IMG/VR virus record: IMGVR_UViG_3300021399_000100
DNA: 64,000 nt
Origin: a virus
Lineage: Duplodnaviria > Caudoviricetes
Strand: one strand, 5' to 3'
The notes beneath the pieces are model-generated. The model had not been told where the DNA came from and ran no database searches. It saw only the letters and a list, made by a program, of their open reading frames with translations. The position numbers and the translations under genes are program-made. The number at the start of each line of letters is the position of its first letter. Position 1 is the first letter of the stretch. This document shows positions 2,127 through 16,287 of the stretch, piece after piece.

Positions 2127-2225
2127 GTCAATCTAAAGATGTTTATTATATGTATTTACCGTGAGAATGCATTAATTCACGTGTGATTATATATATGTCA
2201 ATTTATTTAACATTTCATATTTTAT

Positions 2226-3143
2226 ATGGCAAAGAAAGAAACAAAACAGATCAAGTTGCCTAAGGTCAAGAATATCAGGCCTTCTAAGGCGCCTCAGCTG
2301 TCAACAAAAGCAATGGAGGAATCCTTACTGAGTGTAGGAAACGTAAAAGAGAACTTTCCTAAAATCGAAGCTCTTCTTTTTAAGTTAACTGGAATAGCTC
2401 CGTCAGAAAACACTATTGATGCGAGACTGCGATGCGCATTCACATCAGCGAACGCAAAATCCGTTACGAAAGTAACTCCAAGCACGTTGAGCACAATACG
2501 ACAGCTTATCGAAGCGAAGTTTAATCTAGTAATGTGCTATCCTATGGACTTGCTAGCAAAACATATTGATGAGCTCAGTGATGAGGAGTATGCATCAATA
2601 TATACTAAAGAAGACGCCAATAATGTCGAAGGCGTCATCAGAACCAGCTCTATTGCCAGTTTAGAAGCATTCCGTGCGTACGGTGTATTCACTAAAGAAG
2701 GCAAGAAATGGCCAGATTACTATGATGCAGAATATACCATGTGTGGTATGGCTGACGAATTGGTTGAATTTGCTGCTGCTACAGAAGAAGAGAAGTCTCA
2801 CGAACTAGGCGACGTTCTATGGTACTTTATGGCTATCGTAGCATTTTGGGATGCAACTGATGAAGACATCAACACCATCATTGAGGCTGGGAAGAATGCT
2901 GACAGCAACAACGAATACGACTATACCAAAGCATTCCATAAGTTCGTTAAACTTATGAGAGACGAACCTCATCTTATCGGAGATTTCTCTGTGATCACTC
3001 CAATGATGGCAGATGTATTCTGTACCCTTATCAAATATGCCGGAGGCATCGATAAGCTTTCTGAGGTTGCCCTTGAGAACATTGCAAAGATCCGAGACAG
3101 GATTGCACGCGGTGTTGTGAGAGGTAGTGGAGACAATCGTTAA
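2226..3143 (+). CDS. mazG: MazG-like nucleoside triphosphate pyrophosphohydrolase with N-terminal extension
   Basis: ELGDVLWY motif; C-terminal NIAKIRDRIARGVVRGSGDNR is typical of phage MazG. Confidence 0.8.
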   Translation: MAKKETKQIKLPKVKNIRPSKAPQLSTKAMEESLLSVGNVKENFPKIEALLFKLTGIAPSENTIDARLRCAFTSANAKSVTKVTPSTLSTIRQLIEAKFNLVMCYPMDLLAKHIDELSDEEYASIYTKEDANNVEGVIRTSSIASLEAFRAYGVFTKEGKKWPDYYDAEYTMCGMADELVEFAAATEEEKSHELGDVLWYFMAIVAFWDATDEDINTIIEAGKNADSNNEYDYTKAFHKFVKLMRDEPHLIGDFSVITPMMADVFCTLIKYAGGIDKLSEVALENIAKIRDRIARGVVRGSGDNR

Positions 3144-3159
3144 TCTTAAAACGTTAAAA

Positions 3160-4110
3160 ATGAAAGAGTTACTAATTAAGAAGCACGCACCTGTTGAGAT
3201 TGCTGAGTCATTCTGGCCTGAAGCCGTCCTTAAATCGTTGACTACAGCAGACCATAATCTTGTGATAGGGCCTCCTGGAACTGGCAAGTCTTCCACCATT
3301 CAGGCTTATTTGAAAGAGCATGGTTTTTCTTTCATTTATCTGAATGGTTCCGACAACCGTGGTCTAGACGCTGTCCGTACGACGATCCAGAACTATATCG
3401 ATTATGATACTGTCGGCGGCAGTGACAACCGTGCGGTGCTAATCGATGAGATAGATGGCTTTACTCCTGCAGCATTCAATGCATTGCGATCTGTGATGGA
3501 GCATGCTAATGGTGTGCGATTCTTCGCTACAGCCAATAATGGAAGAGTTATTCCTGCGCCTATCAAATCTAGGTTTAATGTGACAGAGATCGACATAAAC
3601 AATACTGAATTTAAACAGAAGTGGCTGCTTCGTATTCAGAAGATCCTGGAACTTGAAAATGTCACATTTAATAAGGATAACAATATGGCTCTCGCTCTGA
3701 AGAGCATATATCCTGATTTCAGAAAAGCATGCACTATACTGAGCCAAGCTATCAATGATGACAATGTTCTGGACTCTAAAACGCTGACTCAACTAGCTAA
3801 TAATAATGATATCGTCACTGACGAAGAGGCTACGTTTAAGTGGTTGATGGGTTCTGCTCCTGATAATATCTATCATACTCTGCGAAGCCTATCCTCGTAC
3901 GCAGAAATTATGCAGACATTCGCGTCGCCATTTATCAACTGGCTCCAGCCGAAGCTAGATCCTCATAAATGGAGTGAAGTCGCTTTCAAGATCAGCGCAT
4001 CTTATGGCCAACATATGGTACAGTATCAAGCAGCACCCGACCAGTTGTTAATTACTTATGCGTACTTATTGACTGTGAGGGGGTATGTGCTTCAAGCAAT
4101 GTCTAAGTGA
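3160..4110 (+). CDS. sliding-clamp loader AAA+ subunit (T4 gp44/RFC-like)
   Basis: Walker A GPPGTGKS, LNGSDNRGLDAVR, Walker B LIDEID, sensor ATAN, IKSRF, YPDFRK; likely start ATG 3160. Confidence 0.9.
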   Translation: MKELLIKKHAPVEIAESFWPEAVLKSLTTADHNLVIGPPGTGKSSTIQAYLKEHGFSFIYLNGSDNRGLDAVRTTIQNYIDYDTVGGSDNRAVLIDEIDGFTPAAFNALRSVMEHANGVRFFATANNGRVIPAPIKSRFNVTEIDINNTEFKQKWLLRIQKILELENVTFNKDNNMALALKSIYPDFRKACTILSQAINDDNVLDSKTLTQLANNNDIVTDEEATFKWLMGSAPDNIYHTLRSLSSYAEIMQTFASPFINWLQPKLDPHKWSEVAFKISASYGQHMVQYQAAPDQLLITYAYLLTVRGYVLQAMSK

Positions 4111-4159
4111 TAACTTTGCCTAATATTATACATCTCACTTATCTTTGAGCCAAGTGAGC

Positions 4160-4207
4160 TGCGGCATGGACTGATAGATTGATAAATATCTGTTCCATGC
4201 TGCTTTT
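4160..4207 (+). terminator. intrinsic terminator after the clamp loader gene
   Basis: GCGGCATGGA...TTCCATGCTGC stem followed by TTTT. Confidence 0.6.
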
Positions 4208-4657
4208 GTTTACATATAGAAATAGAGAATGCTACAAATTTTGCAAGAAAGTCATAAAAAATATGAACTACAACGAAAATATTTATAATTTTATGGCAGA
4301 AAACATGCAGATAGTTTGTTATGCAGATGTAAATATATTATTAATATCAGTACATCAATGAGAAAATATTTTACATATAATGTGTTCAACATGAGCTCCT
4401 TTGGATTTCATGCGAATTTCGCTACTACAGCCAATCCGCAAAGAGCATCTATGACATCATGAGCGCTACTGAATTAAAGATGATATACGCATTAATATAA
4501 AAAGGTAGCACATAATACGCTACCTTTTGTTTTGTATAGGGGAATATTTTCAGAAATCGGATGATTATATAATTGAACGTAATAAGATAGTTCATGATAA
4601 TCATCATGGTTCTGTTACGACGCCTTTTTAGCTCAGCTGGTAGAGCACGTGATTTGT

Positions 4658-5124
4658 TAAACAGATTCCGTACAATGTCATTGCTTATGGAAAAGAAACA
4701 AAAAGGTAATTTAGTTGAGTTGCAGTGCATCACTGCATTTTATGAATTAGGTTATCAAGTCAGCATTCCATACGGTGAAAATTCCAGGTATGATTTTGTA
4801 GCGGACATAGACAACAGACTTATAAGAGTTCAAGTCAAAGCATCTCATGAAGTTGATGAAAACTCTTTTCGATTCAGTTGTCAATCTGTTAAATCGAAAA
4901 GATCTGGGATTTCCAGACGTAAGTATACGAAAGATGAAATTGACTTTTTTTCAACTTTCTATAATGGTAAATGTTACTTGGTGCCAGTCGAAGAATGTTC
5001 AATATATAAAACACTTCGGACATCGGAGAGTAAAAATAACCAAATGCAAAACATAAATTTTGCAGATAGTTACGAGCTAGAAAAACAGATTGATAAAATT
5101 AAAAACCCGGAACATTGATTAACA
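4658..5124 (+). mobile_element. endonuclease-encoding tRNA intron/insert lacking an evident self-splicing core
   Basis: Lies between tRNA positions 36 and 37; terminal pairings GATTTGTTAA/TTAACAAATC and TTCCG/CGGAA; ORF fills nearly the whole element. Confidence 0.8.
4687..5118 (+). CDS. PD-(D/E)XK homing endonuclease, I-Ssp6803I/PDDEXK_5-like
   Basis: KQKGNLVELQCITAFYELGYQVSIPYGENSRYDFVADIDNRLIRVQVKA matches the family pattern (KG...P.G....YD........VQVK); Y...EIDFF motif; start ATG 4687 or 4675. Confidence 0.9.
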   Translation: MEKKQKGNLVELQCITAFYELGYQVSIPYGENSRYDFVADIDNRLIRVQVKASHEVDENSFRFSCQSVKSKRSGISRRKYTKDEIDFFSTFYNGKCYLVPVEECSIYKTLRTSESKNNQMQNINFADSYELEKQIDKIKNPEH

Positions 5125-5200
5125 AATCTCGGGGTCGTTGGTTCGAGTCCAACAAGAGGCTCATAAGAAATATAGATCTTTGACATGTTAAATTATATAT

Positions 5201-5272
5201 AGTCCTTTCGTATAGCGGCTAGTACACAAGATTTTGATTCTTGGAGGAGGCGTTCGAATCGCTTAGGGACTA
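5201..5272 (+). tRNA. tRNA-Gln(TTG)
   Basis: Cloverleaf; CAAGA-TT TTG AT-TCTTG. Confidence 0.9.
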
Positions 5273-5287
5273 CAAAATAAATTATAT

Positions 5288-5359
5288 AGTCCTTTCGTAT
5301 AGCGGCTAGTACACAAGATTCTGACTCTTGGAGGAGGCGTTCGAATCGCTTAGGGACTA
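5288..5359 (+). tRNA. tRNA-Gln(CTG)
   Basis: Same as the preceding tRNA except loop TT CTG AC. Confidence 0.9.
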
Positions 5360-5374
5360 CAAAACAATAATGTA

Positions 5375-5449
5375 TGCGGGGTGGACTGGAGTAGGTTCCA
5401 GCTTGGTCTCATAAGCCATATAACGTGGGTTCGAATCCCACCCCCGCCA
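5375..5449 (+). tRNA. tRNA-Met(CAT), initiator-like
   Basis: CT CAT AA loop; 1:72 mismatch; T arm GTGGG-TTCGAAT-CCCAC. Confidence 0.8.
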
Positions 5450-5537
5450 CAATGATTCAGGGGGCGTGTCACATTGCTGTAGACACCATAATATAAATCC
5501 TGGAGGTTTGGAGATTTTACCATAAAATCTCCATAAT

Positions 5538-5610
5538 GGATCTGTAGCTCAGTTGGTAGAGCACTAGACTGAAGATCTAGGTCGCGACAGTTCGAATCTG
5601 TCTGGATCCA
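5538..5610 (+). tRNA. tRNA-Phe(GAA)
   Basis: CTAGA-CT GAA GA-TCTAG; full cloverleaf. Confidence 0.95.
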
Positions 5611-5619
5611 CATAAATAT

Positions 5620-5693
5620 GGGGCTGTAGTTCAGTTGGCTAGAACGTCTGCTTTGCACGCAGAAGGTCGTGGGTTCGAGTCCCACTAGCTCCA
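5620..5693 (+). tRNA. tRNA-Ala(TGC)
   Basis: TCTGC-TT TGC AC-GCAGA; G3:U70. Confidence 0.95.
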
Positions 5694-5700
5694 CATAAAT

Positions 5701-5773
5701 GGGGTTGTAGCTCAGTTGGTAGAGCGTGTGACTGTTAATCACAAGCGCGCAGGTTCGAGCCCTGTCTGCCCCG
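5701..5773 (+). tRNA. tRNA-Asn(GTT)
   Basis: TGTGA-CT GTT AA-TCACA. Confidence 0.9.
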
Positions 5774-5957
5774 CGCAATTGCCGCCTGACGCGTCTAGTA
5801 CACGCAGATAGAGTATCTATAGGAGAGAAACATGCCTATACGCTCTGTTTTGTCGGGAAAGCATCTTAGCGGCTATGGAAGTTGGCTAAGGAGGCTTGAT
5901 AGTAAGCCTTAACAGGATAAGTTGTTTCTGTGATGATTTCTATCACGTCATCACTAT

Positions 5958-6041
5958 GGATTGTTAGTTCAGTCGGTTAGAACGCATGCATCACACACAC
6001 AAAACATGCATGAGACACGGGTTCAAACCCCGTACTTTCCT
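5958..6041 (+). ncRNA. tRNA-like RNA with an Asp-like body and an 18-nt CA-repeat anticodon loop (pseudo-tRNA or decoy)
   Basis: D arm GTTC-AGTCGGTTA-GAAC, stem CATGC/GCATG, T arm ACGGG-TTCAAAC-CCCGT; loop ATCACACACACAAAACAT; two acceptor-stem mismatches. Confidence 0.7.
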
Positions 6042-6063
6042 CAGGTCTATTTTTAGATTATAA

Positions 6064-6137
6064 CTAGGCATGGTGGAGTTGGTTAACACACCGCGTTTGG
6101 GACGCGGGGATCGGGAGTTCGAATCTCTCTGCCTAGA
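6064..6137 (+). tRNA. tRNA-Pro(TGG)
   Basis: CCGCG-TT TGG GA-CGCGG. Confidence 0.9.
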
Positions 6138-6147
6138 CATAAATTAC

Positions 6148-6220
6148 ATCGGGTTCATCTAGCGGTCTAGGATACCACCCTTTCACGGTGGCCACATGGA
6201 TTCAAATTCCATACCCGATA
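6148..6220 (+). tRNA. tRNA-Glu(TTC)
   Basis: CCACC-CT TTC AC-GGTGG. Confidence 0.9.
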
Positions 6221-6269
6221 CACAATAAAACTGTTGAAATATAAGACATAAGTCTAAAACAGTTCATAT

Positions 6270-6341
6270 GGGTATTTTAGCTCAACGGTAGAGCGCCTGA
6301 CTGTGGATCAGGATACGATGGTTCGACACCATCATTTACCC
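6270..6341 (+). tRNA. tRNA-His(GTG)
   Basis: CCTGA-CT GTG GA-TCAGG; encoded G-1 and C73. Confidence 0.9.
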
Positions 6342-6591
6342 CAAGTCTGGTGCGATGTATTGGGGCGCGGTAAGCAATGATACGTAATATGCTACATCAT
6401 ATGTAAGCCCGTGAAAAATGCCTCGGAGGGGGTGACTACAACCATGTATGAATAGGCATATATTAAGATATATGGAAGTACCACTGAGCAAGAGGTTCCA
6501 GTTAATACTGCGAGAAATCCTAACGCAGAGAACGTGACGACAGCGAATACATCAATCTATAGGTTGGCAGCTGGAAATAGACAGCAGAATA

Positions 6592-6676
6592 GGAAGTGTG
6601 GGTGAGTGGCTTAAACCGCATCTCTTGAAAAGATGAGGCCAGCAATGGTCCGGGGGTTCGAATCCCTCCGCTTCCG
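6592..6676 (+). tRNA. tRNA-Ser(TGA)
   Basis: CATCT-CT TGA AA-AGATG; long variable arm; G73. Confidence 0.9.
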
Positions 6677-6904
6677 CGATAGGGCACAGCAACGTCAGCT
6701 GTGGAGATACGAGGGAGGGCAATAATAATAACCTTGTCATCGGTGTCTAAAATCTTACACAACCTCGTGCGATTACTGCGCACTCACTACGAAGGTATCG
6801 ATGACTTGATTGACTTAAATTCCGTATCCAGGTTGATCCTCGTTAAGACTTTGGATATCTATATACCTTACATAAGAGAGCCTATCACTGCTCTCTTTTT
6901 TAAT

Positions 6905-6976
6905 GGCTCCTTAGCTCAATGGATAGAGCACCAGACTTCTAATCTGATGATGATGGTTCGATTCCATCAGGAGTCA
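6905..6976 (+). tRNA. tRNA-Arg(TCT)
   Basis: CCAGA-CT TCT AA-TCTGA; A20 in the D loop. Confidence 0.9.
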
Positions 6977-7077
6977 CTTGTATTTTGAATCAATTTAGTA
7001 CTTGTTTGGGGTAATCCATGCAGCATCTAGTGATTATATATATGTAAGAGTTCATTGATATAATAAATAAATAATAT

Positions 7078-7150
7078 GTACCTGTAGCTCAGCTGGTAGA
7101 GCTCCTGACTTTTAATCAGGAGGTCACAAGTTCGAATCTTGTCGGGTACA
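7078..7150 (+). tRNA. tRNA-Lys(TTT)
   Basis: CCTGA-CT TTT AA-TCAGG. Confidence 0.95.
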
Positions 7151-7379
7151 CAATGATGTGATTTACTGAATTATTTATACAATGTTGTTGGATGCATTGA
7201 AAAATATTCATAATTTCACATCATAATAAATAAGGCAATCCTCACAAGAGCTAGAATGTTGAGGTTTAATATGGACAAGTTCATCAATGACGTTTATGTA
7301 TGAATGAAGGCATGTTAGGTCGCACATTACGTAGGAGGCAGATGTAGGCCGAACGTATGATAACGGCATTGCCTTTTAA

Positions 7380-7453
7380 GGACCAATAGCTCAGCAGGTT
7401 AGAGCAACTGACTCATAATCAGTAGGTCGTAGGTTCAAGCCCTTCTTGGTCCA
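7380..7453 (+). tRNA. tRNA with CAT anticodon, probably Ile2 (lysidine) type
   Basis: ACTGA-CT CAT AA-TCAGT; body resembles bacterial tRNA-Ile2; elongator Met not excluded. Confidence 0.8.
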
Positions 7454-7492
7454 CTTTATTATTAATGTTTAATTTTTCACATTTTATTAATT

Positions 7493-8308
7493 ATGATGAA
7501 AATGAATACGCTGCTTGGCGTTACAGACCACGCACAAGCTGTTGCAAACAAAGAGGTGTCTGAATATACATCGCTCTTCAAAAACAAGGGTGGCCAATTC
7601 ATTGGTGAGTTGAAAACGTACGAGCCTCACGAAGGTTACCCCGACAAGCCTGCAGAACACGTTAATCGCACTGTGGCTTCAACTGTGTCTGAGCAGTTCG
7701 ACTATATGTTGAACGATAAAGACCCGCACTGTGGCGCACTCCCTAAGTATTTGAAACTTCTGTTTCAGATTGAGGCCACCAATTCAATCGGTGCCAAACG
7801 CGTTCCATTGATTGTAGATGGTGTAAATTTAGGTAGTTTGACTGCGGTAGAGTTGATGCGTTTGAAGAACGTCCTCACATCAACGAACCTAGACGAAATG
7901 CTCAAGAATATCCCAGTTCGCAGTGACTCCAAGAGATGGACCCGAGCAGGCGGTGATTATTCTGACAGAGAGGTATATGAATCGGATGTCATCCGCTCAG
8001 TGGATAGAACCACTATCAAGACCCAGGAAATCTTGAAGGATCCAAATATTGATCCATCTAACATTCCAGCGAATTACCGCTCAACCGTAGTTGAAAGGGC
8101 GCAGATTGTCGAAATGGCTGACCAGACCCGTCAGGAGTTCACCGGTGAGTGGTCACAGACTCAGAAGGCCTATCTATTGAGCCGAAAGTCATTGCTGCTT
8201 AACGCAGTAATCGCAGCTCTTAAAGAGGTTAACGATATCGAAGCATCTCCAGCAAATTTGGACGTAGACACAATGCTGAAATATCTGTTCTTTGGCAACA
8301 AGGAATAA
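7493..8308 (+). CDS. conserved hypothetical protein (DUF7873-like), coupled to a downstream structured RNA
   Basis: Recalled family pattern: F.G..KTY.P, V..TV.E, ATN, LIVDG, L.LK, IPV....W, FTG.W...K..LL.R..LL.AV..AL..VN, C-terminal YLFG. Confidence 0.65.
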   Translation: MMKMNTLLGVTDHAQAVANKEVSEYTSLFKNKGGQFIGELKTYEPHEGYPDKPAEHVNRTVASTVSEQFDYMLNDKDPHCGALPKYLKLLFQIEATNSIGAKRVPLIVDGVNLGSLTAVELMRLKNVLTSTNLDEMLKNIPVRSDSKRWTRAGGDYSDREVYESDVIRSVDRTTIKTQEILKDPNIDPSNIPANYRSTVVERAQIVEMADQTRQEFTGEWSQTQKAYLLSRKSLLLNAVIAALKEVNDIEASPANLDVDTMLKYLFFGNKE

Positions 8309-8315
8309 TAAATAA

Positions 8316-8648
8316 GGGATAAGGTTATTGGGTTAGCCTTATCTCACAAATTGACTAAAGCTTTACTTTTACTCTTTACATTTAAGCTTAACAGTCCTAG
8401 AGTGTTAGCATTGAGTCAAGAGCATTACAGTATAGCTTTATTGCAAAGCCATAGCATGTTCGTGTAATTCTTCATGAATTGTAAACACTTAGGCGCGGGT
8501 TCGAATCCCGTCCTGCCCGCAATTTTTTGATATTATATATGGGCAGGTGGTGAAGGGGTTAACACGGGTGTTCCACAGCTTTAGCATAACTTGCTATAAA
8601 GGTATTTGCACAATTCTACGGATATGCAGCAGGGATAGCTGGTATCCT
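8316..8648 (+). ncRNA. structured RNA containing a circularly permuted tRNA-like domain (core 8484-8572)
   Basis: T arm plus CCTGCCC (8495-8518) precedes GGGCAGG plus D arm (8541-8565); closed by AACACTT/GGGTGTT, GAATTGT/ACAATTC and GCATGTTCGTG/TACGGATATGC. Confidence 0.8.
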
Positions 8649-8649
8649 A

Positions 8650-8722
8650 GGGGGAGTAGCTCAAAAGGGAGAGCACACGAATCTTAATCATGGAGTTGCC
8701 GGTTCGAGTCCGGTCTCCCCTG
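8650..8722 (+). tRNA. tRNA-Lys(CTT)-like, atypical
   Basis: Cloverleaf with CACGA-AT CTT AA-TCATG (A32, one stem mismatch); G73. Confidence 0.6.
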
Positions 8723-8727
8723 CAAAC

Positions 8728-8807
8728 ATGGCGTTAGACAAATTGGTAAAGTCACACCCTTTATTCTAGGTTGGGTGAATTTGAAGGTTCGAATCCTTCA
8801 CGCCGTA
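8728..8807 (+). ncRNA. tRNA-like RNA with a 13-nt anticodon loop (identity undetermined)
   Basis: ATGGCGT/ACGCCGT acceptor, GAC/GTC D stem, CACCC-TTTATTCTAGGTT-GGGTG, GAAGG-TTCGAAT-CCTTC. Confidence 0.7.
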
Positions 8808-8832
8808 CAAATTTTAGATAATATATGGAAAT

Positions 8833-8903
8833 GTATCCTTGGTCTAATGGTAAGACGGCGGTCTCCAAAACCGCTAATCGAGGTTCGATTCCTTGAGGAT
8901 ATG
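8833..8903 (+). tRNA. tRNA-Trp(CCA)
   Basis: GCGGT-CT CCA AA-ACCGC. Confidence 0.9.
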
Positions 8904-9070
8904 CCGCCAGCATACTAACTACAGGCATGATGTGAGGTATGCATGCTTTCCACTTGTTGCCTGCAATGGAGGAAAGTACAGTTGCTAGTAAGTGTACCAT
9001 ATCATAGGCAGGTTCCTATGTCTAGCTCATGGCCAGTACTGAACAATAAAGGATGCACAAGAAGCTGACC

Positions 9071-9217
9071 AGCGAAGTAGCTCAATAGGTAGAGCACAGT
9101 AATTCATATACGGGAAGATTGCCGTTCGAACATCGCGCGCGAAGTAGTTCAACGCCATTCAGCGAGAGCACCGTATCCATATAACTGAAGATGACAGTTC
9201 GAATCTGTTCTTCGCGC
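9071..9217 (+). ncRNA. tandem tRNA-like units with cross-complementary anticodon arms
   Basis: Two GCGAAG-TA-GYTC...GAGC-A starts and two TTCGAA loops; CAGT(9097)/ACTG(9184) and ATACGG(9108)/CCGTAT(9171) pair between units. Confidence 0.7.
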
Positions 9218-9250
9218 ATAATGTAACTTGTATATTTGTGTTTTGATTGA

Positions 9251-9460
9251 ATGAATGCATATGTACCACATGAACATTACTCTAAAGGCGACTGTGTAGT
9301 TATTGATAGTACATGGGTTGTCAAAGGCTCTAAAACAATAAAAGCAAACGCGTCCGGTATAGGAATGTATGATTATCGCATATATACTATATCGAACGGT
9401 ACTGTTTCTATAGACGTTCCAGAGTGGCTCATATTGGGCAAGCTTGAAGATGATGTATAG
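9251..9460 (+). CDS. hypothetical protein
   Basis: ORF track; plausible small gene. Confidence 0.6.
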   Translation: MNAYVPHEHYSKGDCVVIDSTWVVKGSKTIKANASGIGMYDYRIYTISNGTVSIDVPEWLILGKLEDDV

Positions 9461-9532
9461 AAATGATTAGCTATGTACATCTTGACTATATAGTTAATAA
9501 TTCAATAAGTATAAGTGTAGTATATTACAATA

Positions 9533-10072
9533 ATGAAAAACTTTTTAATGATTTTAATAACGGTGGCTCTTGCTTTTTTTGCACACCATTTTTTAAGCTC
9601 ACCATCGTATTCTGCAACTACAGAAATCACGGTAGACAATTTCCTTGATATTGCTAAAGCAGATCTTGCTACAGAGTCTTCGAAATCAGAAAACGTCGTG
9701 TTCTACGAGAGTCAAATCACATTCTCTAATTTCATTACATCAGATACTGTAGGCATCGAACGAGTTATGAATGTTATTCAGGATACTTCTATGTGCATAC
9801 AGTTTCACCATCGTGGAACTAAAACATATATTACTAAAACGCATTCGTATTGGCTAGAAGATATTCCTGTTAACTTGGATAGGTTGATTACATTGGATAG
9901 TGCTATTACTAGATTGAACATGGCAAACGTACCAAAGCCTAAGACACGTATATGTATATTGCGCAACGTCTTAGGACCGACGCCTACAACCCCAGCTTAT
10001 ATTTTTGGAACGCATGGTACTGGATTCGTAAGAGTTGACGGATATACCGGAGAGGTTAGTACTATAGAATAA
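9533..10072 (+). CDS. hypothetical exported protein
   Basis: N-terminal signal/TM segment; C-terminal VRVDGYTGEV is PepSY-like. Confidence 0.7.
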   Translation: MKNFLMILITVALAFFAHHFLSSPSYSATTEITVDNFLDIAKADLATESSKSENVVFYESQITFSNFITSDTVGIERVMNVIQDTSMCIQFHHRGTKTYITKTHSYWLEDIPVNLDRLITLDSAITRLNMANVPKPKTRICILRNVLGPTPTTPAYIFGTHGTGFVRVDGYTGEVSTIE

Positions 10073-10122
10073 TAAATATAGGGAAGCAATCAATACCATA
10101 GTGTTCTGATTGCTTTTCTTAT

Positions 10123-10193
10123 GTCAGGTTGGCCGAGTGGTTAGGTAATGGTCTGCAAAACCATTTACGCAGGTTCGATTCCTGTACCTGACT
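10123..10193 (+). tRNA. tRNA-Cys(GCA)
   Basis: ATGGT-CT GCA AA-ACCAT; U73. Confidence 0.9.
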
Positions 10194-10216
10194 CTTCATT
10201 TAAAATAATATATGTC

Positions 10217-10648
10217 ATGATAGATATAGATAAACTTATTCTTTCTGCAACAAAAGAAAGAGACATAGCTAGGCGAGAGAGCTATAAGATGGTAAAGTCA
10301 AAGTTCCAGGAATGGAAGACTTCTAAGGAGAATGCTGGTAAGAAGGAGATGACTGAGGCTGATCAAATTAAGATCCTCAAGAAGCTTAAAGCCGAATACG
10401 AAGCAGATGCTAGTATGTATCGTACAAAAATGTCAGGCCAAGACATTGCGAAGCAATACGAAGAAACTGCAGTTATTATTGGCAAGCTTATCCCTGCCGA
10501 AGCTAGTGAAGCCGATATAGAAGCGTATATTAGCGAGATAGTTGGCGGTTCAAATATGCAGTTGAAAGATGTGATATGTGCTACTAAAGCGAAGTTCCCT
10601 TCGACTGATGGTAAGATCATAGCCACATTGGTAAAGAAACATTTCTGA
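10217..10648 (+). CDS. GatB/YqeY-domain protein
   Basis: IDKLILSATKERD...MVKSKF...ILKKLK...E..II..LIP...DGKII..LVK; real start ATG 10217 after tRNA-Cys. Confidence 0.8.
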   Translation: MIDIDKLILSATKERDIARRESYKMVKSKFQEWKTSKENAGKKEMTEADQIKILKKLKAEYEADASMYRTKMSGQDIAKQYEETAVIIGKLIPAEASEADIEAYISEIVGGSNMQLKDVICATKAKFPSTDGKIIATLVKKHF

Positions 10649-10752
10649 TATATAGACAAAAATGATTAAGGCTATCATACAAGATAGCCTTTTGTTTTAT
10701 ATCGTAAATAATTTGTATAACGCTACTCCAAGTGGCTTTAACTAAAACAGAT

Positions 10753-11400
10753 ATGATAGTAGATAATTTCGAAGCATTTGAGAAATGCATCATGAATTTC
10801 CAAACAGATGATTCTGGAGATCCTTATATTTACCAGATTGATCTAATTGAAAGGAAGAAAGACGGTGTGGATTGTATTGGTAGCAAAAATAGTTCGCGCC
10901 GCGTAGCATCTTTCTACCCTGAAGATATAGCTCAATGGCAGAAATACAAGAACCGTATTAAAGAGATGTGCACTAGCCGACCAGGATTGAGAGCTTACAT
11001 CAACCCATCTAGAAAGAAAGCATCTAAAGTTCTATTACATTTGAATACATTAATAGCCAAACGTTTATATGACAAGGCATATACAGGACTGAGCAAGTTG
11101 TACCCTTCTGCTATAGCATCATGCAAGCCATACAAACAGGATGCATTGTGGGTTCTTGACGTAGACGCGGATGATCCATTTTCTTCAGATGATATTTTAG
11201 AATATTTTGAAAGCGTAGGTCTTTCTTCAGTCATAGTAACATCATTGCCTTCTAAGAGTGGCTGTCATATAATAACAAAGGCTTTTGATCGACATAAATT
11301 TGACGAATGGCTAAATAATAAGTGGGGAGGAAAGAAAACTGGTGAATCTATAGTTCATATCAATTCCCTTACTAACCTGTATATTAATACAGGCATATAA
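10753..11400 (+). CDS. conserved phage protein with AEP (primase-polymerase)-like motifs
   Basis: WVLDVD (hhhDhD) and PSKSGCHII (sxxGxH). Confidence 0.55.
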   Translation: MIVDNFEAFEKCIMNFQTDDSGDPYIYQIDLIERKKDGVDCIGSKNSSRRVASFYPEDIAQWQKYKNRIKEMCTSRPGLRAYINPSRKKASKVLLHLNTLIAKRLYDKAYTGLSKLYPSAIASCKPYKQDALWVLDVDADDPFSSDDILEYFESVGLSSVIVTSLPSKSGCHIITKAFDRHKFDEWLNNKWGGKKTGESIVHINSLTNLYINTGI

Positions 11401-11437
11401 AGTTTCCTAAGATCATACTTAATTCATTTATATTATT

Positions 11438-11998
11438 ATGTTAGTATTGCATAGTGTTTCATTGGCTGCTCTTTTAGCAGTCTTAATTTATGTAGTGTGT
11501 TTTATTTGCAGATATAGAATCGTTCCGCAAAGCCTTTCTGTTACTGCAGAGTATAATGGCCGATATATATGGTGGCAGATAATGATATGTACTGTTATGG
11601 GCTGGTTGGGGTATTGGATACCTACTGTGTATGATTTTAGCACATATGGATATTGGCCCATTTTGGCTTCAGTAGGAGCTGCTGGATTGGCATTGGCTGG
11701 ATATTATTCATATTCACCAGATGAAGAGTCTAAGCATGATATGATGATACATAAGATAGGGTCTTTTTCAGGCGCGGTTCTCGTATGTCTGTTTTATGTA
11801 GCATGTTTGCATTGGTGGGCAGTACTATTTATATTGGCCATATGTGCTTTGCTAGGCCTTATCGTTCCAGGATGCAGATACGACGCTCATTATACTAGAG
11901 GTTATTCAATAAGCAACTCTATTGTCTTCTGGGAAGAGATTGGTATCATCGGCATTATAGGATTCGATATTGTCAATAGATTCATATCTTGTTTCTGA
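11438..11998 (+). CDS. integral membrane protein
   Basis: About 5-6 hydrophobic segments. Confidence 0.75.
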   Translation: MLVLHSVSLAALLAVLIYVVCFICRYRIVPQSLSVTAEYNGRYIWWQIMICTVMGWLGYWIPTVYDFSTYGYWPILASVGAAGLALAGYYSYSPDEESKHDMMIHKIGSFSGAVLVCLFYVACLHWWAVLFILAICALLGLIVPGCRYDAHYTRGYSISNSIVFWEEIGIIGIIGFDIVNRFISCF

Positions 11999-12086
11999 TT
12001 AGCAAATATATAGATGCAGCCATGTTCCTATGCAGCCTGCATCTATATTTGTAAATATACTATTAATAACAATTGATTATGCTCAC

Positions 12087-12752
12087 ATGAATATATTGCA
12101 CTTTAAGGAATGGCTTTATGTCCACGGTGGTTATAGACATACGCCCAAAACTAAAGAAGAACTATTGGATGCCATTGAAATCGAAATAAAGAAGCAAGGT
12201 CCTCATGCAAACTTAGGGTATATTGATGTATCAAATGTGACAGACATGAGCGAATTATTTATGAATAGAGAATCATTCGATTGTGATATTTCAAACTGGA
12301 ATACGTCAAAAGTAAAAGACATGTCCAGGATGTTCGCTAATACTAAGAACATAAAGGTGGATCTGTCAAGTTGGAACGTTTCTTCTGTCAAACATATGGA
12401 TGGTATGTTTGAACGCAGCGATTTCACCGGTGATTTACATAGCTGGAATGTCTCTAATGTTGTCAGCATGAGAGGAATGTTCATGTATTCTAAATTCAAT
12501 AGCAATATTTCGGATTGGGATACTTATAATGTAAAAGACATGGCCATGATGTTCATGTGTAGTGATTTCAATCGAGATATACACTGTTGGTGTATATCAA
12601 ATGTAAGAGACATGACCCGAATGTTCTACGGAGCGCATTCATTTGTTCACGATATCAGTAACTGGAATCTGAGTAAGGTCACTAATAAAGATGAGATGTT
12701 CGATGACAGTGAATATATTCGACAGCAGATAAAGATGCCATACGAAATATAA
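12087..12752 (+). CDS. DUF285/BspA-like surface-repeat protein
   Basis: Repeated IS.W.TS.V.DMS.MF units; IDVSNVTDMSELF. Confidence 0.9.
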   Translation: MNILHFKEWLYVHGGYRHTPKTKEELLDAIEIEIKKQGPHANLGYIDVSNVTDMSELFMNRESFDCDISNWNTSKVKDMSRMFANTKNIKVDLSSWNVSSVKHMDGMFERSDFTGDLHSWNVSNVVSMRGMFMYSKFNSNISDWDTYNVKDMAMMFMCSDFNRDIHCWCISNVRDMTRMFYGAHSFVHDISNWNLSKVTNKDEMFDDSEYIRQQIKMPYEI

Positions 12753-12803
12753 AAAAAAGAGAAGGTTTCTATTGAGTACCTTCTCTTTATTATTTATACA
12801 ATA

Positions 12804-12843
12804 AATGCGATTTAACGCGATATCTTTTATAAATCGATATCTT
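12804..12843. repeat. dispersed intergenic repeat, copy 1
   Basis: 38/40 identical to the reverse complement of 59463-59502. Confidence 0.85.
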
Positions 12844-12906
12844 ATACAGTTTGTTATATATATGCGATTATATGCGCGTTTATGCACGGAATTTAATATA
12901 ATAGAG

Positions 12907-12940
12907 TAAAAAGGGTGTGACAAGAATCACACCCTTTTTA
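12907..12940. terminator. bidirectional intrinsic terminator
   Basis: TAAAAAGGGTGTGA-caagaa-TCACACCCTTTTTA between convergent genes. Confidence 0.8.
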
Positions 12941-12949
12941 ATAAGTTTA

Positions 12950-14644
12950 TTAGAAATACTTAACCGTCCAGTTTTCTGGTACAGCCTCTACTGGTAAGTT
13001 AAATCCCTGCACCACAACTGGGAAGTATATAACTCCACTAACTGTTGTGTTTGTAAATAAAAACTGTTGGAAAGTAAGAGCATTTGAAGGTGAAGTGATA
13101 TTTACTACCACTGTAGTTAGTGCTGAGCAAATTGATAACCCATTTTCCAGGCCCATAGACTTTGCTGAGTCAGCTTCAAGATAAGCATATTCCAAACCAC
13201 TACATCTAGAGAAAGCATTACTCAACATTCTTCTCATAATCTTAGATGGCAGGATAGGCAGTTTCTTTAGCCCTGTACAGTTAAACAAGAAGTAAGCAAA
13301 GGTATTAGTACCATCACTGTCTCCAGGATAAGCCATGTGTCTATTCATATCAAGCTTACTAGCATCTACAATAGCTGAGTTACTACTAAACAGATTCATG
13401 AAGCAGTTCTCGCAAGGATTGACAGTTGTATTTGTTCCGTTATTCATTAGAGAAGAAACGCAACCAACCAGATCCACTTTACCTGTCATTGAGAAATTCC
13501 AGTTACCTGAATTATAGCCAGTCGTAATACCTGCTGAATTATTTCCTCTAAAAAATACAGCTCTTCCTGCTAGCAAGGAAATGACTGTATTAGGAGTATA
13601 CTCATTCCATGTGCTGTTATTTAAGCTATACTCAAATGTTCTATTTAAATCTGCCCCAGAATAATCCTCGACATAATCTTTCATGTAAAGTTTTACAGTA
13701 GACGCTTCTCTTGCAATAATACCAATAGGAAGAGGATTTGATGCAGTATCTGTTATGTTTATAGCTAGCCAATTGGAAGGAAGGGTGAATTTGTCTACAA
13801 TACTTCCCTCTACATAAAAAGTACCCGTAGTAGACAATCCTGTCATTACATTAGTACTTGCACCTGCGGTTGTACTGCCATCTACATAAAGAGAAGCCTT
13901 TACTAAAGAAGTGCATCCTTTAAACAGATTGGAATGTCCAGTAAGATTACCACTTACTTTTAAATTCGCCTTCGCAAGAGATGTGCAATTTTCAAACCAA
14001 CCTGAGAGATTAACATTTCCTGGGAAAGTTACGTCTGCTTCGGTTAATCCTGTTAATCCAGAAAGACAAGGAATAGCTCCTGCTGTCGTAGGAAAGTCTA
14101 TTCCATCTATATTGCTTATAACTCCTGCTGAATCTACTATTGTTAGATTAGGGATAGAAGATAAGCTGCCTGAAAGTTTTGCATTTCCTGATAAAAATGT
14201 CAGTGTAACATTTCCTGATGTATTCCACAAATACATTTGTTTGCCAGAAGAAACGACAATATCAGAACCTGATGTTACTGCAGTAGCATTGTTAGTAACA
14301 GTAGTGGAACCTTGTTTTACATTGCTACCTGTTACTGTAATAACTGTTCTTGAAATAGCTGTTACACAAAAAGGACTGTTTGCTTTTGCGACGCTAAATC
14401 CCTTTGCTCTTGCTACGTCAATAGTGCTTTGACTAAGAGAATCAACAACACTTTCATTAAGAGTTATTGTTTTACCACTTACTGTTCCTGCGTTACTTAC
14501 AATACCTTCAACAGATTCTGGAGTTAAAGGAGAGTCTGGTGCAGAAAAATCACGAATCAACCCAGAAAAAGAGATACTTGTAACTGACTTTCCTGGATCA
14601 TTAATCGTTATGCTTGAATTTTTTGGAATGTTGTATGTACTCAT
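12950..14644 (-). CDS. tail-fibre-associated protein with BspA/LRR-like repeats
   Basis: F.NCTSL..A and FNCTGLKKLP repeats, EYSLNNSTW..YT module; start overlaps the upstream stop (ATGA). Confidence 0.65.
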   Translation of the reverse strand: MSTYNIPKNSSITINDPGKSVTSISFSGLIRDFSAPDSPLTPESVEGIVSNAGTVSGKTITLNESVVDSLSQSTIDVARAKGFSVAKANSPFCVTAISRTVITVTGSNVKQGSTTVTNNATAVTSGSDIVVSSGKQMYLWNTSGNVTLTFLSGNAKLSGSLSSIPNLTIVDSAGVISNIDGIDFPTTAGAIPCLSGLTGLTEADVTFPGNVNLSGWFENCTSLAKANLKVSGNLTGHSNLFKGCTSLVKASLYVDGSTTAGASTNVMTGLSTTGTFYVEGSIVDKFTLPSNWLAINITDTASNPLPIGIIAREASTVKLYMKDYVEDYSGADLNRTFEYSLNNSTWNEYTPNTVISLLAGRAVFFRGNNSAGITTGYNSGNWNFSMTGKVDLVGCVSSLMNNGTNTTVNPCENCFMNLFSSNSAIVDASKLDMNRHMAYPGDSDGTNTFAYFLFNCTGLKKLPILPSKIMRRMLSNAFSRCSGLEYAYLEADSAKSMGLENGLSICSALTTVVVNITSPSNALTFQQFLFTNTTVSGVIYFPVVVQGFNLPVEAVPENWTVKYF

Positions 14645-16287
14645 TGTGCAGAAGTAATTTGAGATATACCTGAAGTTTTGAAGAAAGTCCATTGATTATT
14701 TAAACAGATGCACTTTACAACACTTTCATTGCATCCATTCAAATCTGTATTTGTATTACCATCTTTAATTGTTAGTGTATTACCACTTGTAATTGTTAAT
14801 TCGATTTCTTTTCCAGTCACTTTTGTTATATTAGTAAAGTCCAAAATAGAATTGGATCCATAAGAGTAAGTAACAATTATCTTTGGTTTATCTTCTGCTG
14901 TTATCGTCTCTCCAGAATAATTGGTAAATGTTACTATTTGTGGTTTCAAAAAATCGAACATTTTAGCAGTGACATAATCTTTCACTACTTTTAGTGAAGC
15001 CAAATAATTAGGAGCATTTGCTGAGGACATTAAATCTTCCATTATTGAGAAAGTAGATATTGATTTCACATATTCAATATCACTTCCTAATGTTACCTCA
15101 AGGGCTCCTCCAGCAATACCAAAAGTTCCTACTTCATATTGTATCGAAGCATTATCTCCAAAAGATGTATAACCAGAACGTTTCCCTTGCAAAGGATTAC
15201 TGTCACCATTTGCTGTTATCCATGAAGTTCCATTCCACCATTTAGGTATCTTTTTGAGTGCAGAGCCATCGAAAACCATATCTCCAACTTTAGGTTCCGC
15301 AGGAAATGATTCTCCTGATTTAACAACATGAGGATAAGTCAATACATAGTCAGGCAAATCCTCTCCTCTAAACTCAAAGCTTTCCAAAGTTGCATCTTGA
15401 CCTATAAATATATATAGCCAATCAGCATCGTGTTCAGCAACAAAGCTCCAAGTTCCGGCACCTGAGTCTCCTGAATTATTAACTTGTTTCAATCGGTTAT
15501 CGGGATTCTGTGTACTTTTAGCTCCTTTACCATAACCTATGTAGAAAGAACGTGCTGTTTTAGTATAATAGTACCTTTTACCCTTTTCAATAGGAAATGT
15601 TATGAACTTATATTGGTCTGTCATATTGGTTACTTTAACAGGCTCAATAGCACTTCCAAGGTCTGTAAGGGTAATGTCTACAAGATTAGAAGAGGAACCA
15701 GTGGTGAAATAGAAATACTTAGCATCGTCTACCATACAAATAAACTCATAAGTACCTGCACCGCTAGAAAAAGACGTTCTTACATCCTGTGCAATATCAG
15801 TTCTAGAATTATTAGTTCTAGTCATAAAGCCAGTGAAAGGACTCTGAGTTTTTGTTAATGAGTATTTTTCATACTTCTTAAAGTTGTATGGAATCCAAAA
15901 TTCACCACCAACATCTGTTCTAACAACAGGTTCTTCTACTGGATAGTCAGTTCTAGGATGGAAGATTTCTATGAGGTCTGGTTTATTTATGTTATTCAGG
16001 CCGCCAATATTCTTCCAACCGGCACCTGTATTCATCCAAAGTTTACCTGTATCAAGAGATGTCCATATAGCACCTTTTGCTACAGGACCTTCTTTCGTAA
16101 AAAGTTTACCTGCTTTGATAATTGGTTTATCTACTTCATTACCAAACAAATAGCGTTGATTAAACTCCCATTGGACACTGTTTAAAGCATCCAATGAGGT
16201 TCTTTTTAAGATAGCTTTAATATCTGCAACAATCTTATCTAAAGATTGTTTGTCAATTAATTCTACGTTGTCGCTCATAATTGTCAA
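14641..16287 (-). CDS. putative tail-fibre/virion accessory protein
   Basis: Co-oriented with the fibre gene; duplicated SGAGT beta-domain; PKWWNGTSWI motif. Confidence 0.55.
   Translation of the reverse strand: MTIMSDNVELIDKQSLDKIVADIKAILKRTSLDALNSVQWEFNQRYLFGNEVDKPIIKAGKLFTKEGPVAKGAIWTSLDTGKLWMNTGAGWKNIGGLNNINKPDLIEIFHPRTDYPVEEPVVRTDVGGEFWIPYNFKKYEKYSLTKTQSPFTGFMTRTNNSRTDIAQDVRTSFSSGAGTYEFICMVDDAKYFYFTTGSSSNLVDITLTDLGSAIEPVKVTNMTDQYKFITFPIEKGKRYYYTKTARSFYIGYGKGAKSTQNPDNRLKQVNNSGDSGAGTWSFVAEHDADWLYIFIGQDATLESFEFRGEDLPDYVLTYPHVVKSGESFPAEPKVGDMVFDGSALKKIPKWWNGTSWITANGDSNPLQGKRSGYTSFGDNASIQYEVGTFGIAGGALEVTLGSDIEYVKSISTFSIMEDLMSSANAPNYLASLKVVKDYVTAKMFDFLKPQIVTFTNYSGETITAEDKPKIIVTYSYGSNSILDFTNITKVTGKEIELTITSGNTLTIKDGNTNTDLNGCNESVVKCICLNNQWTFFKTSGISQITSAQ

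Follow-up and report, generated by a model that had tools for sequence, protein, structure and literature searches.

Interrupted transfer RNA (tRNA) genes of giant phages were reported in 2019 and are still unexplained. The "enigmatic" tRNA introns of the Lak megaphages are 79-114 nucleotides (nt) long and include an intron of tRNA-Thr(TGT) that possibly encodes a tRNA, and the inserts are typically identical across cohorts (Devoto et al. 2019, PMC6784885). Circularly permuted tRNA genes have been described from Cyanidioschyzon merolae (Soma et al. 2007, as cited in PMC4090602), and tandem tRNAs were discarded as false positives of the YrlA model by Chen et al. 2014 (PMC4201824). Here we describe an element at positions 9071-9217, on the plus strand, of a 64,000-nt stretch of DNA (IMG/VR virus record IMGVR_UViG_3300021399_000100), which in its entirety is referred to as the window and whose source is a large rumen or gut phage. 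The Lak megaphage tRNA introns are the closest published parallel to this element, which lies in a tRNA array and consists of two tRNA copies with swapped anticodon-stem strands. Its structure and its origin by duplication are well supported. We put at about even the chance that the element is a tolerated relic, tRNA-shaped and non-decoding, which arose by tandem duplication of a tRNA followed by decay of complementary halves of the two copies.

Reading of positions 9071-9217 confirmed the sequence of both units as given in an earlier note on this DNA. Unit 1 (9071-9136) and unit 2 (9137-9217) are paralogous tRNA units that together make up the element, and 52 of the 65 positions aligned between them (about 80%) are identical. 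The best match of each unit among the tRNAs of the array was the other unit, with the tRNA at 8650-8723 only narrowly behind. Alignment to unit 2 revealed a 6-nt gap in unit 1 at the expected 3' strand of the T stem, consistent with the partly deleted inner T stem that had been noticed before, and the D loop of unit 2 is enlarged to 15 nt. The units do pair poorly within their own anticodon arms, as had been proposed, with four of five pairs formed in unit 1, three of five in unit 2, and an internal mismatch at position 28:42 in both (A facing G in unit 1 and C facing U in unit 2). Across the units this position forms A-U and C-G pairs. The claim that the strands pair perfectly between units was also correct, as there is a helix of 4 base pairs (bp) between CAGT at 9097-9100 and ACTG at 9184-9187, and a second helix of 6 bp between ATACGG at 9108-9113 and CCGTAT at 9171-9176.

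The Rfam tRNA model (RF00005) covered all 147 nt of the element as one tRNA with a score of 38.9 bits (E = 1.1e-4 for the 64-kilobase (kb) window), the gathering cut-off of the model being 29 bits. In this alignment the acceptor stem, D arm and T arm were placed, and 85 nt were left as an insertion inside the anticodon stem. ARAGORN called no tRNA at 9071-9217. The element does not have a standard 5-bp anticodon stem and 7-nt loop with U33 and an anticodon. Its anticodon arm comprises a 4-bp stem, an internal loop of 7 x 7(8) nt and an insert of 85-101 nt, so that the absence of a usable anticodon loop, also predicted in the earlier note, was borne out: an internal loop and a stalk take the place of the hairpin. 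The TCA triplet that unit 1 would display if folded alone is at 9104-9106. Because there is no hairpin anticodon loop, the element as transcribed is likely, on the predicted structure, to be non-decoding.

The same architecture was found in 18 further contigs from ENA, Logan, JGI and IMG/VR. Its recurrence in these four collections indicates that the layout is a real genomic feature and not an assembly artefact. The predicted length of the tRNA-shaped RNA ranges from 145 to 163 nt across haplotypes. No convincing promoter or terminator belonging to the element itself was found, so the element is probably co-transcribed with the array.

The minimum-energy structure predicted by RNAfold has the architecture of the Rfam alignment, with an acceptor helix formed by 9072-9077 and 9210-9215 and a T arm at 9193-9209. 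A comparison of the energies of the swapped and independent folds had been recommended beforehand; in the window the swapped, nested fold had an energy of -36.3 kcal/mol, versus -28.6 kcal/mol for two separate cloverleaves with their own stems, and was thus favored by 7.7 kcal/mol. In the ensemble of the window, the cross pairs had a probability of about 0.77 and the own-stem pairs one of about 0. The nested fold was the minimum-energy structure in all seven haplotypes of the element, with a probability of the outer acceptor of 0.78-0.99. A competitor acceptor, in which 9137-9144 pairs with 9210-9217 (8/8), was a close rival in the window only (-35.1 vs -36.3 kcal/mol, probability 0.20), and in the other six haplotypes it was 8-18 kcal/mol above the nested fold. 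The element as a whole had no thermodynamic excess (z-score -0.68), and the inserted arm, or stalk, was no more stable than dinucleotide shuffles (z-score -0.5 to -1.5).

The two units have decayed in complementary halves. The outer halves (the 5' half of unit 1 and the 3' half of unit 2) retain the canonical tRNA core, namely U8, A14, A15/U48, G18, G19, A21, G53-C61, the TTC of the T loop and A58. The core nucleotides of RF00005 associated with the L-shape are thus present in the outer body, and the same nucleotides are absent or mutated in the inner halves, in which the 3' T-stem strand is missing, the D loop is devoid of GG, the acceptor strand is hypervariable and, in the long forms, the T loop carries mutations. 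Two cloverleaves and a single nested structure are both open to a tandem duplicate, and once its inner halves are damaged only the nested body can still form. The earlier note had envisaged an outer tRNA leading into an inner permuted elbow; the outer body and the order of a 3' half followed by a 5' half stood, and the inner elbow did not, with a D loop that lacks GG and a T arm that is either missing or mutated.

Followed from its 5' end, the element begins with the 5' strand of the outer acceptor stem (9071-9077), which is invariant in all haplotypes and pairs with 9210-9216; six of the seven pairs are formed in the window, and all seven in haplotypes H2, H3 and H6. The outer D arm (9080-9095) was placed by the Rfam tRNA model and is also invariant, with a 4-bp stem and an 8-nt loop that carries A14, G18, G19 and A21. 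The 5' strand of the unit 1 anticodon stem (9097-9100) forms its four perfect pairs with 9184-9187 in the minimum-energy fold and is invariant in the seven haplotypes. It is followed by the 5' strand of the internal loop (9101-9107), in which the TCA at 9104-9106 is replaced by TTA in contig L034, and by the 3' strand of the unit 1 anticodon stem plus loop bases (9108-9113), whose six pairs with 9171-9176 are likewise invariant. The T-arm remnant of unit 1 (9120-9131) consists of the 5' stem strand and the T loop with no 3' partner, and in the long haplotypes mutations affect one or two conserved positions of its T-loop motif. The hypervariable junction (9123-9146) spans the end of unit 1 and the acceptor 5' strand of unit 2 (9137-9144), and it occurs in three length classes with many substitutions.

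The D-like arm of unit 2 (9147-9169) has, on folding, a 4-bp stem and the 15-nt loop; in the long haplotypes the would-be 3' strand of this D stem is instead paired with an extra 15 nt, which makes the stalk a mostly helical rod. The 5' strand of the unit 2 anticodon stem (9171-9176) is the cross-unit partner of 9108-9113. The 3' strand of the internal loop (9177-9183) is the former unit 2 anticodon loop, with CAT, a C at position 33 and a 1-nt insertion or deletion between haplotypes, and after it comes the 3' strand of the unit 2 anticodon stem (9184-9187), the partner of 9097-9100. The outer tRNA is completed by a 5-nt variable loop and a canonical T arm (9188-9209 in the Rfam alignment) and by the acceptor 3' strand with a discriminator C (9210-9217), in which the last two stem bases are polymorphic (CG, TT or CA). 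The two variable positions of the T stem switch only between G-C or C-G and G-U. H2 and H3 share the whole 17-nt T arm with the tRNA-Phe at 5538-5611; the window departs from it at 9209, the last base of the stem.

Seven haplotypes of the element (H1-H7) were distinguished among the window and the recovered contigs of relatives, which are designated by L-numbers. Three are short, namely H1 (147 nt; window, L031 and L032), H5 (145 nt; L028) and H6 (145 nt; L029, L030 and L033), and four are long, all of 163 nt, namely H2 (L001 and L027), H3 (L005, L007 and L008), H4 (L006, L009 and L017) and H7 (L034). The RF00005 scores were 36.2 bits for H4, 34.8 for H5, 40.5 for H6 and 33.3 for H7, all above the cut-off. 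The searches with the tRNA model covered H1, H2 and H4-H7, and H2 was unreported in three of them. The triplet is TCA in six haplotypes and TTA in H7.

The window and the relatives compared with it have a coding divergence of about 2.5%, and only about 0.4% across 8326-9122 and 9218-9455. In the near flanks of the element (8873-9122 and 9218-9455) there were 0-3 differing sites per comparison. The first 52 nt of the element are almost invariant, and about 11 events fall in the 94 nt at 9123-9216, where they cluster in the unit junction (9123-9146) and the last two acceptor 3' bases, with one further change in a base closing the T stem. When the nested structure was applied across haplotypes, 97.8% of cells were paired and no pair had changed on both sides. 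The cross helices had zero variation in the seven haplotypes, so neither compensatory nor disruptive changes were seen in them, and pair 1:72 is formed in only three of the seven. Short and long junctions each occur with both the CG and the TT allele of the 3' end, so that all four combinations are represented, which indicates either recombination among alleles or recurrent change within the element. No gene-conversion donor of the window's junction was found elsewhere in the window, and a search of the window for an antisense target of the variable junction gave only 8-12-mers at chance level.

Based on these observations, we propose that tandem duplication or unequal recombination in a rearranging array would have produced two paralogous tRNA copies; double-strand breaks in the DNA of the anticodon loop, if repaired off misaligned paralogs, would readily give such a chimeric tandem pair. 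The acceptor strand and D arm of copy 1 (its 5' half) would then join with the T arm and acceptor strand of copy 2 (its 3' half) into a normal tRNA body. The inner halves, 3' in copy 1 and 5' in copy 2, would have degenerated, held between the two short swapped-strand helices, and the anticodon loop would have been replaced by the 7 x 7 internal loop and the stalk of 85-101 nt. Host ribonuclease (RNase) P and RNase Z, together with the CCA-adding enzyme, probably continue to process the RNA as they would a tRNA, and the element would be a relic that persists through tolerance and not through selection.

Several observations sit uneasily with a relic. All three stem changes outside 1:72 preserve pairing (Watson-Crick G-C or C-G exchanged with G-U), both cross helices and the entire outer body show no change beside adjacent segments that vary about 30-fold above the local background, and in none of 19 sequences has the element been lost or collapsed to a single tRNA. 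Judging from these alleles, the pattern of variation resembles a constrained core with a free apical region. There is also a second case. A 24-mer from the 5' half of the element (D arm and start of the anticodon stem) was found in one other IMG/VR contig, a 99.9-kb sequence (L035/L036) from a different large phage that has no DUF7873 gene; the same 24-mer had no match in GTDB representative genomes. At L035:777-894 (= L036:8266-8383) there is a 118-nt tRNA-like gene, missed by ARAGORN, that scores 46.8 bits as a tRNA; its 8-bp acceptor is perfectly paired, its D and T arms are canonical, and the anticodon arm is replaced by a 56-nt insert. This gene has 27 nt identical to 9075-9101 and an unrelated insert at the same place; other tRNA matches between the two arrays are only 72-85% identical. 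An interruption that is seen more than once is more readily accounted for if it serves some use.

Mainly because of this L035 case, there is a sizeable probability, albeit well short of even, that the element is a selected RNA, i.e., an anticodon-less tRNA mimic or natural scaffold whose tRNA body recruits host processing and protection and whose fast-evolving stalk is the working part or cargo. The earlier note had suggested that the element might be a decoy or an RNA-repair substrate. The stalk could then serve as a decoy for a host nuclease or sensor that targets tRNA, as a processing signal for the upstream 166-nt RNA, or as a site for a phage protein. The presence of a permuted tRNA-like RNA 450 nt upstream in the array and the unusual conservation of the block 8326-9122 would also fit such a role. 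It is countered by the lack of any double-sided covariation in seven haplotypes of one narrow lineage, by the ordinary energy of the stalk, by the 1:72 mismatch in four of seven haplotypes, and by searches that found neither complementarity to a target in the window nor a partner protein or known family. More tentatively, and with a low probability, one may imagine a natural tRNA scaffold in large phages, in which the body is processed and stabilised by host RNase P, RNase Z and the CCA enzyme and the rapidly evolving stalk takes part in phage-host conflict as a decoy or binding partner; its second member would be the L035 gene.

That the element is an intron-bearing tRNA, from which the 85-101-nt insert is excised and the halves are joined by proteins to give a decoding tRNA with UCA, or with CAU in the homologous register, we consider improbable; such splicing has been proposed for the Lak megaphage tRNA introns. 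The outer exons do form a complete canonical tRNA body, the insert is located in the anticodon loop, the Lak megaphage tRNAs have 79-114-nt inserts after the anticodon, some of them tRNA-like (PMC6784885), the tRNA-Thr of the same array is split after its anticodon, and relative L020 encodes an RNA ligase downstream of the DUF7873 gene and flanking tRNA genes. Yet no boundary restores a clean 5-bp stem and 7-nt loop, A31 and A39 being mismatched, the triplet varies (TCA vs TTA), and the amino-acid identity bases of the acceptor (71 and 72) vary among near-identical phages. A group I intron was rejected since the insert of 85-101 nt is too short for a group I core (P3-P8, >200 nt) and no Rfam intron family matched. 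An archaeal or eukaryal bulge-helix-bulge (3-4-3) intron was rejected as well, as the 7 x 7(8) loop lies between helices of 4 bp and 6 bp. There is also no evident need for a UGA suppressor, and stop-codon recoding that would call for one was rejected, as the window reads well under the standard code with dense long open reading frames (ORFs).

It is very unlikely that unit 2 (9137/9138-9217) is by itself the gene, with an 8-bp acceptor (G-1:C73) and a long D loop, and that unit 1 is a dead leader removed by RNase P. Unit 2 of the window by itself reaches 31.1 bits with the tRNA model, its acceptor pairs at 8/8 positions and its fold is within 1.2 kcal/mol of the nested one; in addition, its 1:72 pair is C-G in H1 and U-A in H4, and the L035 homolog likewise has an 8-bp acceptor. 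In the other six haplotypes, by contrast, only 5-7 of the 8 acceptor pairs are standard and the fold is 8-18 kcal/mol above the nested one with a probability of about 0, and the anticodon stem with two mismatches in five pairs, the C at position 33, the 8-nt loop of the long forms and the D loop without GG also argue against this reading. Most doubtful is a class II or selenocysteine-like tRNA(UCA) that uses the own anticodon arm of unit 1 and has 9114-9192 as a giant variable arm. With unit 1 folded by itself, UCA is indeed preceded by a U in a 7-nt loop, and the L035 homolog is compatible with a drawing that has a long variable arm, but the own-stem fold has a probability of about 0 at a cost of about 7.7 kcal/mol, and the triplet is TTA in L034. 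Membership in tRNA-Sec was rejected on its D arm (4 bp and an 8-nt loop, vs 6 bp and a 4-nt loop), its discriminator (C, vs G73) and its outer acceptor (7 bp with a mismatch, vs 8 bp). The tolerated relic of a tandem duplication remains the reading that we prefer.

Relatives of the phage were reached via the DUF7873 protein (7493-8308), a 179-amino-acid ORF (9533-10072) and exact look-up of a 69-amino-acid ORF (9251-9460). The element was present wherever the DUF7873 protein was at least 93% identical, and was missing from the syntenic site where identity of the relatives' flanking proteins (DUF7873 or the 179-amino-acid ORF) was 58-81%; no homolog and no long-insert tRNA was found at the syntenic site in L010, L011, L014, L015 and L018-L023. 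A candidate homolog at L010:1789-1897 was rejected as a different insert-bearing tRNA that is no dimer. A search of the GenBank phage collection gave matches to the tRNA-Trp only, pattern scans of IMG/VR gave only a near-twin contig plus L035 for the 5' half, and the one JGI metagenome that was scanned gave one contig of haplotype H2. The closest cultured phages are distant, with a clamp loader at most 28% identical. The G+C (GC) content of the phage is about 38%, and the standard code gives dense long ORFs in the window.

The tRNA array extends over about 4600-10200 on the plus strand, with 17 tRNAs called by ARAGORN and two more hits to the Rfam tRNA model. The array is clearly undergoing active rearrangement, as illustrated by a split tRNA-Thr, anticodon swaps and an ORF that is present or absent. 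The tRNA-Thr(TGT) at 4622-5161 is split after the anticodon by a gene for a PD-(D/E)XK endonuclease (PF11645, 98.5 bits), which is homing-type, and is intact in L001; a 10-bp helix is possible across both insertion junctions. In the tRNA at 6064-6138, compared with L001:4545-4619 of a near-identical phage, the 7-nt anticodon loop is an exact reverse complement, with UGG (Pro) changed to CCA (Trp), which looks like a hairpin-loop inversion, and there is a compensatory change from C-G to U-A in the acceptor stem. One tRNA scaffold (window 8650-8723; L001:7159-7232; L023:4470-4541; L015:1616-1690; L010:5223-5298) has different anticodons in five relatives, namely CTT, CTA (amber suppressor), TGT and TTT, plus a variant with an enlarged loop. 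An ORF of 133 amino acids without a Pfam match (L017:1181-1582) lies between a tRNA with a 13-nt loop and the tRNA-Trp in most relatives, and is absent from the window (site at about 8827-8832), L028, L031 and L032.

Closer to the element, the tRNA-Trp (8833-8905) has a compensatory change from G-C to U-A in its anticodon stem (positions 8860/8872) relative to all six relatives compared. This change serves as a positive control, indicating that working tRNAs in this array are under structural constraint. The 166-nt spacer between the tRNA-Trp and the element (8906-9070) is almost invariant among relatives and has a short motif in common with L023:4650-4690; it had no Rfam match and an unremarkable folding energy (z +1.4). 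The RNA that follows the DUF7873 gene contains a well-formed permuted tRNA module (8480-8580) with the order T arm, acceptor 3' strand, AU-rich loop, acceptor 5' strand and D arm; this is the permuted RNA upstream of the element mentioned above. Among the relatives, L023:4697-4752 is a minihelix of acceptor stem and T arm without D or anticodon arms, downstream of two tRNAs. L002, a distant relative with a complete 178.7-kb genome and terminal repeats, has a Hatchet ribozyme (L002:1114-1261, 91.5 bits) and a transfer-messenger RNA (L002:1755-2304, 76.2 bits) ahead of its tRNA array. The RNA ligase gene of L020 (PF09414, L020:3925-5565) follows the last tRNA gene at a distance of about 1.4 kb, and in L022 a TnpB-like gene (IS605 OrfB, L022:3512-4711) follows a tRNA gene at about 280 nt.

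Compared with the Lak introns, the element is likewise found in a tRNA array of a large gut or rumen phage, and it too has an intact tRNA body interrupted in the anticodon loop by a tRNA-like insert of about 80-115 nt that encodes no protein, is missed by bacterial tRNA finders and has no known removal mechanism. The Lak inserts, as judged by eye from Table S6 (PMC6784885), are all built to one fixed plan, with a small 5' hairpin followed by a tRNA-like unit in normal order with its own acceptor stem and T arm. The insert described here, in contrast, has no 5' hairpin and no acceptor or T arm of its own, is ordered as a 3' half followed by a 5' half, shares ancestry with the outer tRNA and is hypervariable. 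It also belongs to a phage of about 38% GC whose DNA reads well under the standard code in the window.

The inner topology had been likened to YrlA in the earlier note. As in YrlA, there is no anticodon loop, and an anticodon-side helix is followed by T-arm, acceptor and D-arm regions and a second anticodon-side helix; unlike in YrlA, the functional-looking tRNA body is the outer one in normal order. The likeness in order therefore held, and membership in the family was rejected: RF02553 had no match on 8890-9300 even at E <= 10, the main ORFs called in 1-16287, within about 7 kb, included no Ro60/TROVE gene when scanned with PHROGs and Pfam, whereas a YrlA gene is expected within about 4 kb of one, and the inner T and D arms are unable to form an elbow. 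Such an order does not require YrlA because any tandem tRNA pair has it, which is why Chen et al. 2014 set such pairs aside; RF02553 in fact weakly matches an ordinary tandem tRNA junction in L035 (21 bits, cut-off 69).

Permuted tRNA genes of C. merolae probably derive from tandem duplicates. As in those genes, a 3' half lies upstream of a 5' half in the element and tandem duplication is the best explanation. The C. merolae genes have lost their outer halves and are expressed via a circular intermediate with bulge-helix-bulge sites, whereas here the outer halves are intact and the permuted middle has decayed. Our analysis provides one concrete route by which interrupted tRNA genes such as those of giant phages could arise, in that a tandem duplicate decaying in complementary halves automatically yields an intact tRNA body that carries a long insert at the anticodon, and such an interrupted gene can persist through several alleles.

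A further parallel is offered by engineered tRNA scaffolds for RNA expression, reportedly introduced by Ponchon and Dardel in 2007, in which the cargo occupies the anticodon loop of an intact tRNA that gives processing and stability. The insert described here has the same position; the engineered scaffold is a laboratory design, and nothing marks the stalk of the element as cargo. We know of no natural phage example of a tRNA scaffold. Should the RNA not be stable and processed, the element would serve as a clear warning that ordinary tandem tRNAs can give rise to nested or permuted tRNA-like layouts, and to weak YrlA-like hits, with no new function involved. If, on the other hand, the RNA is stable and processed, the element would be a phage tRNA mimic of a new kind and the equivalent, in nature, of the engineered scaffold.

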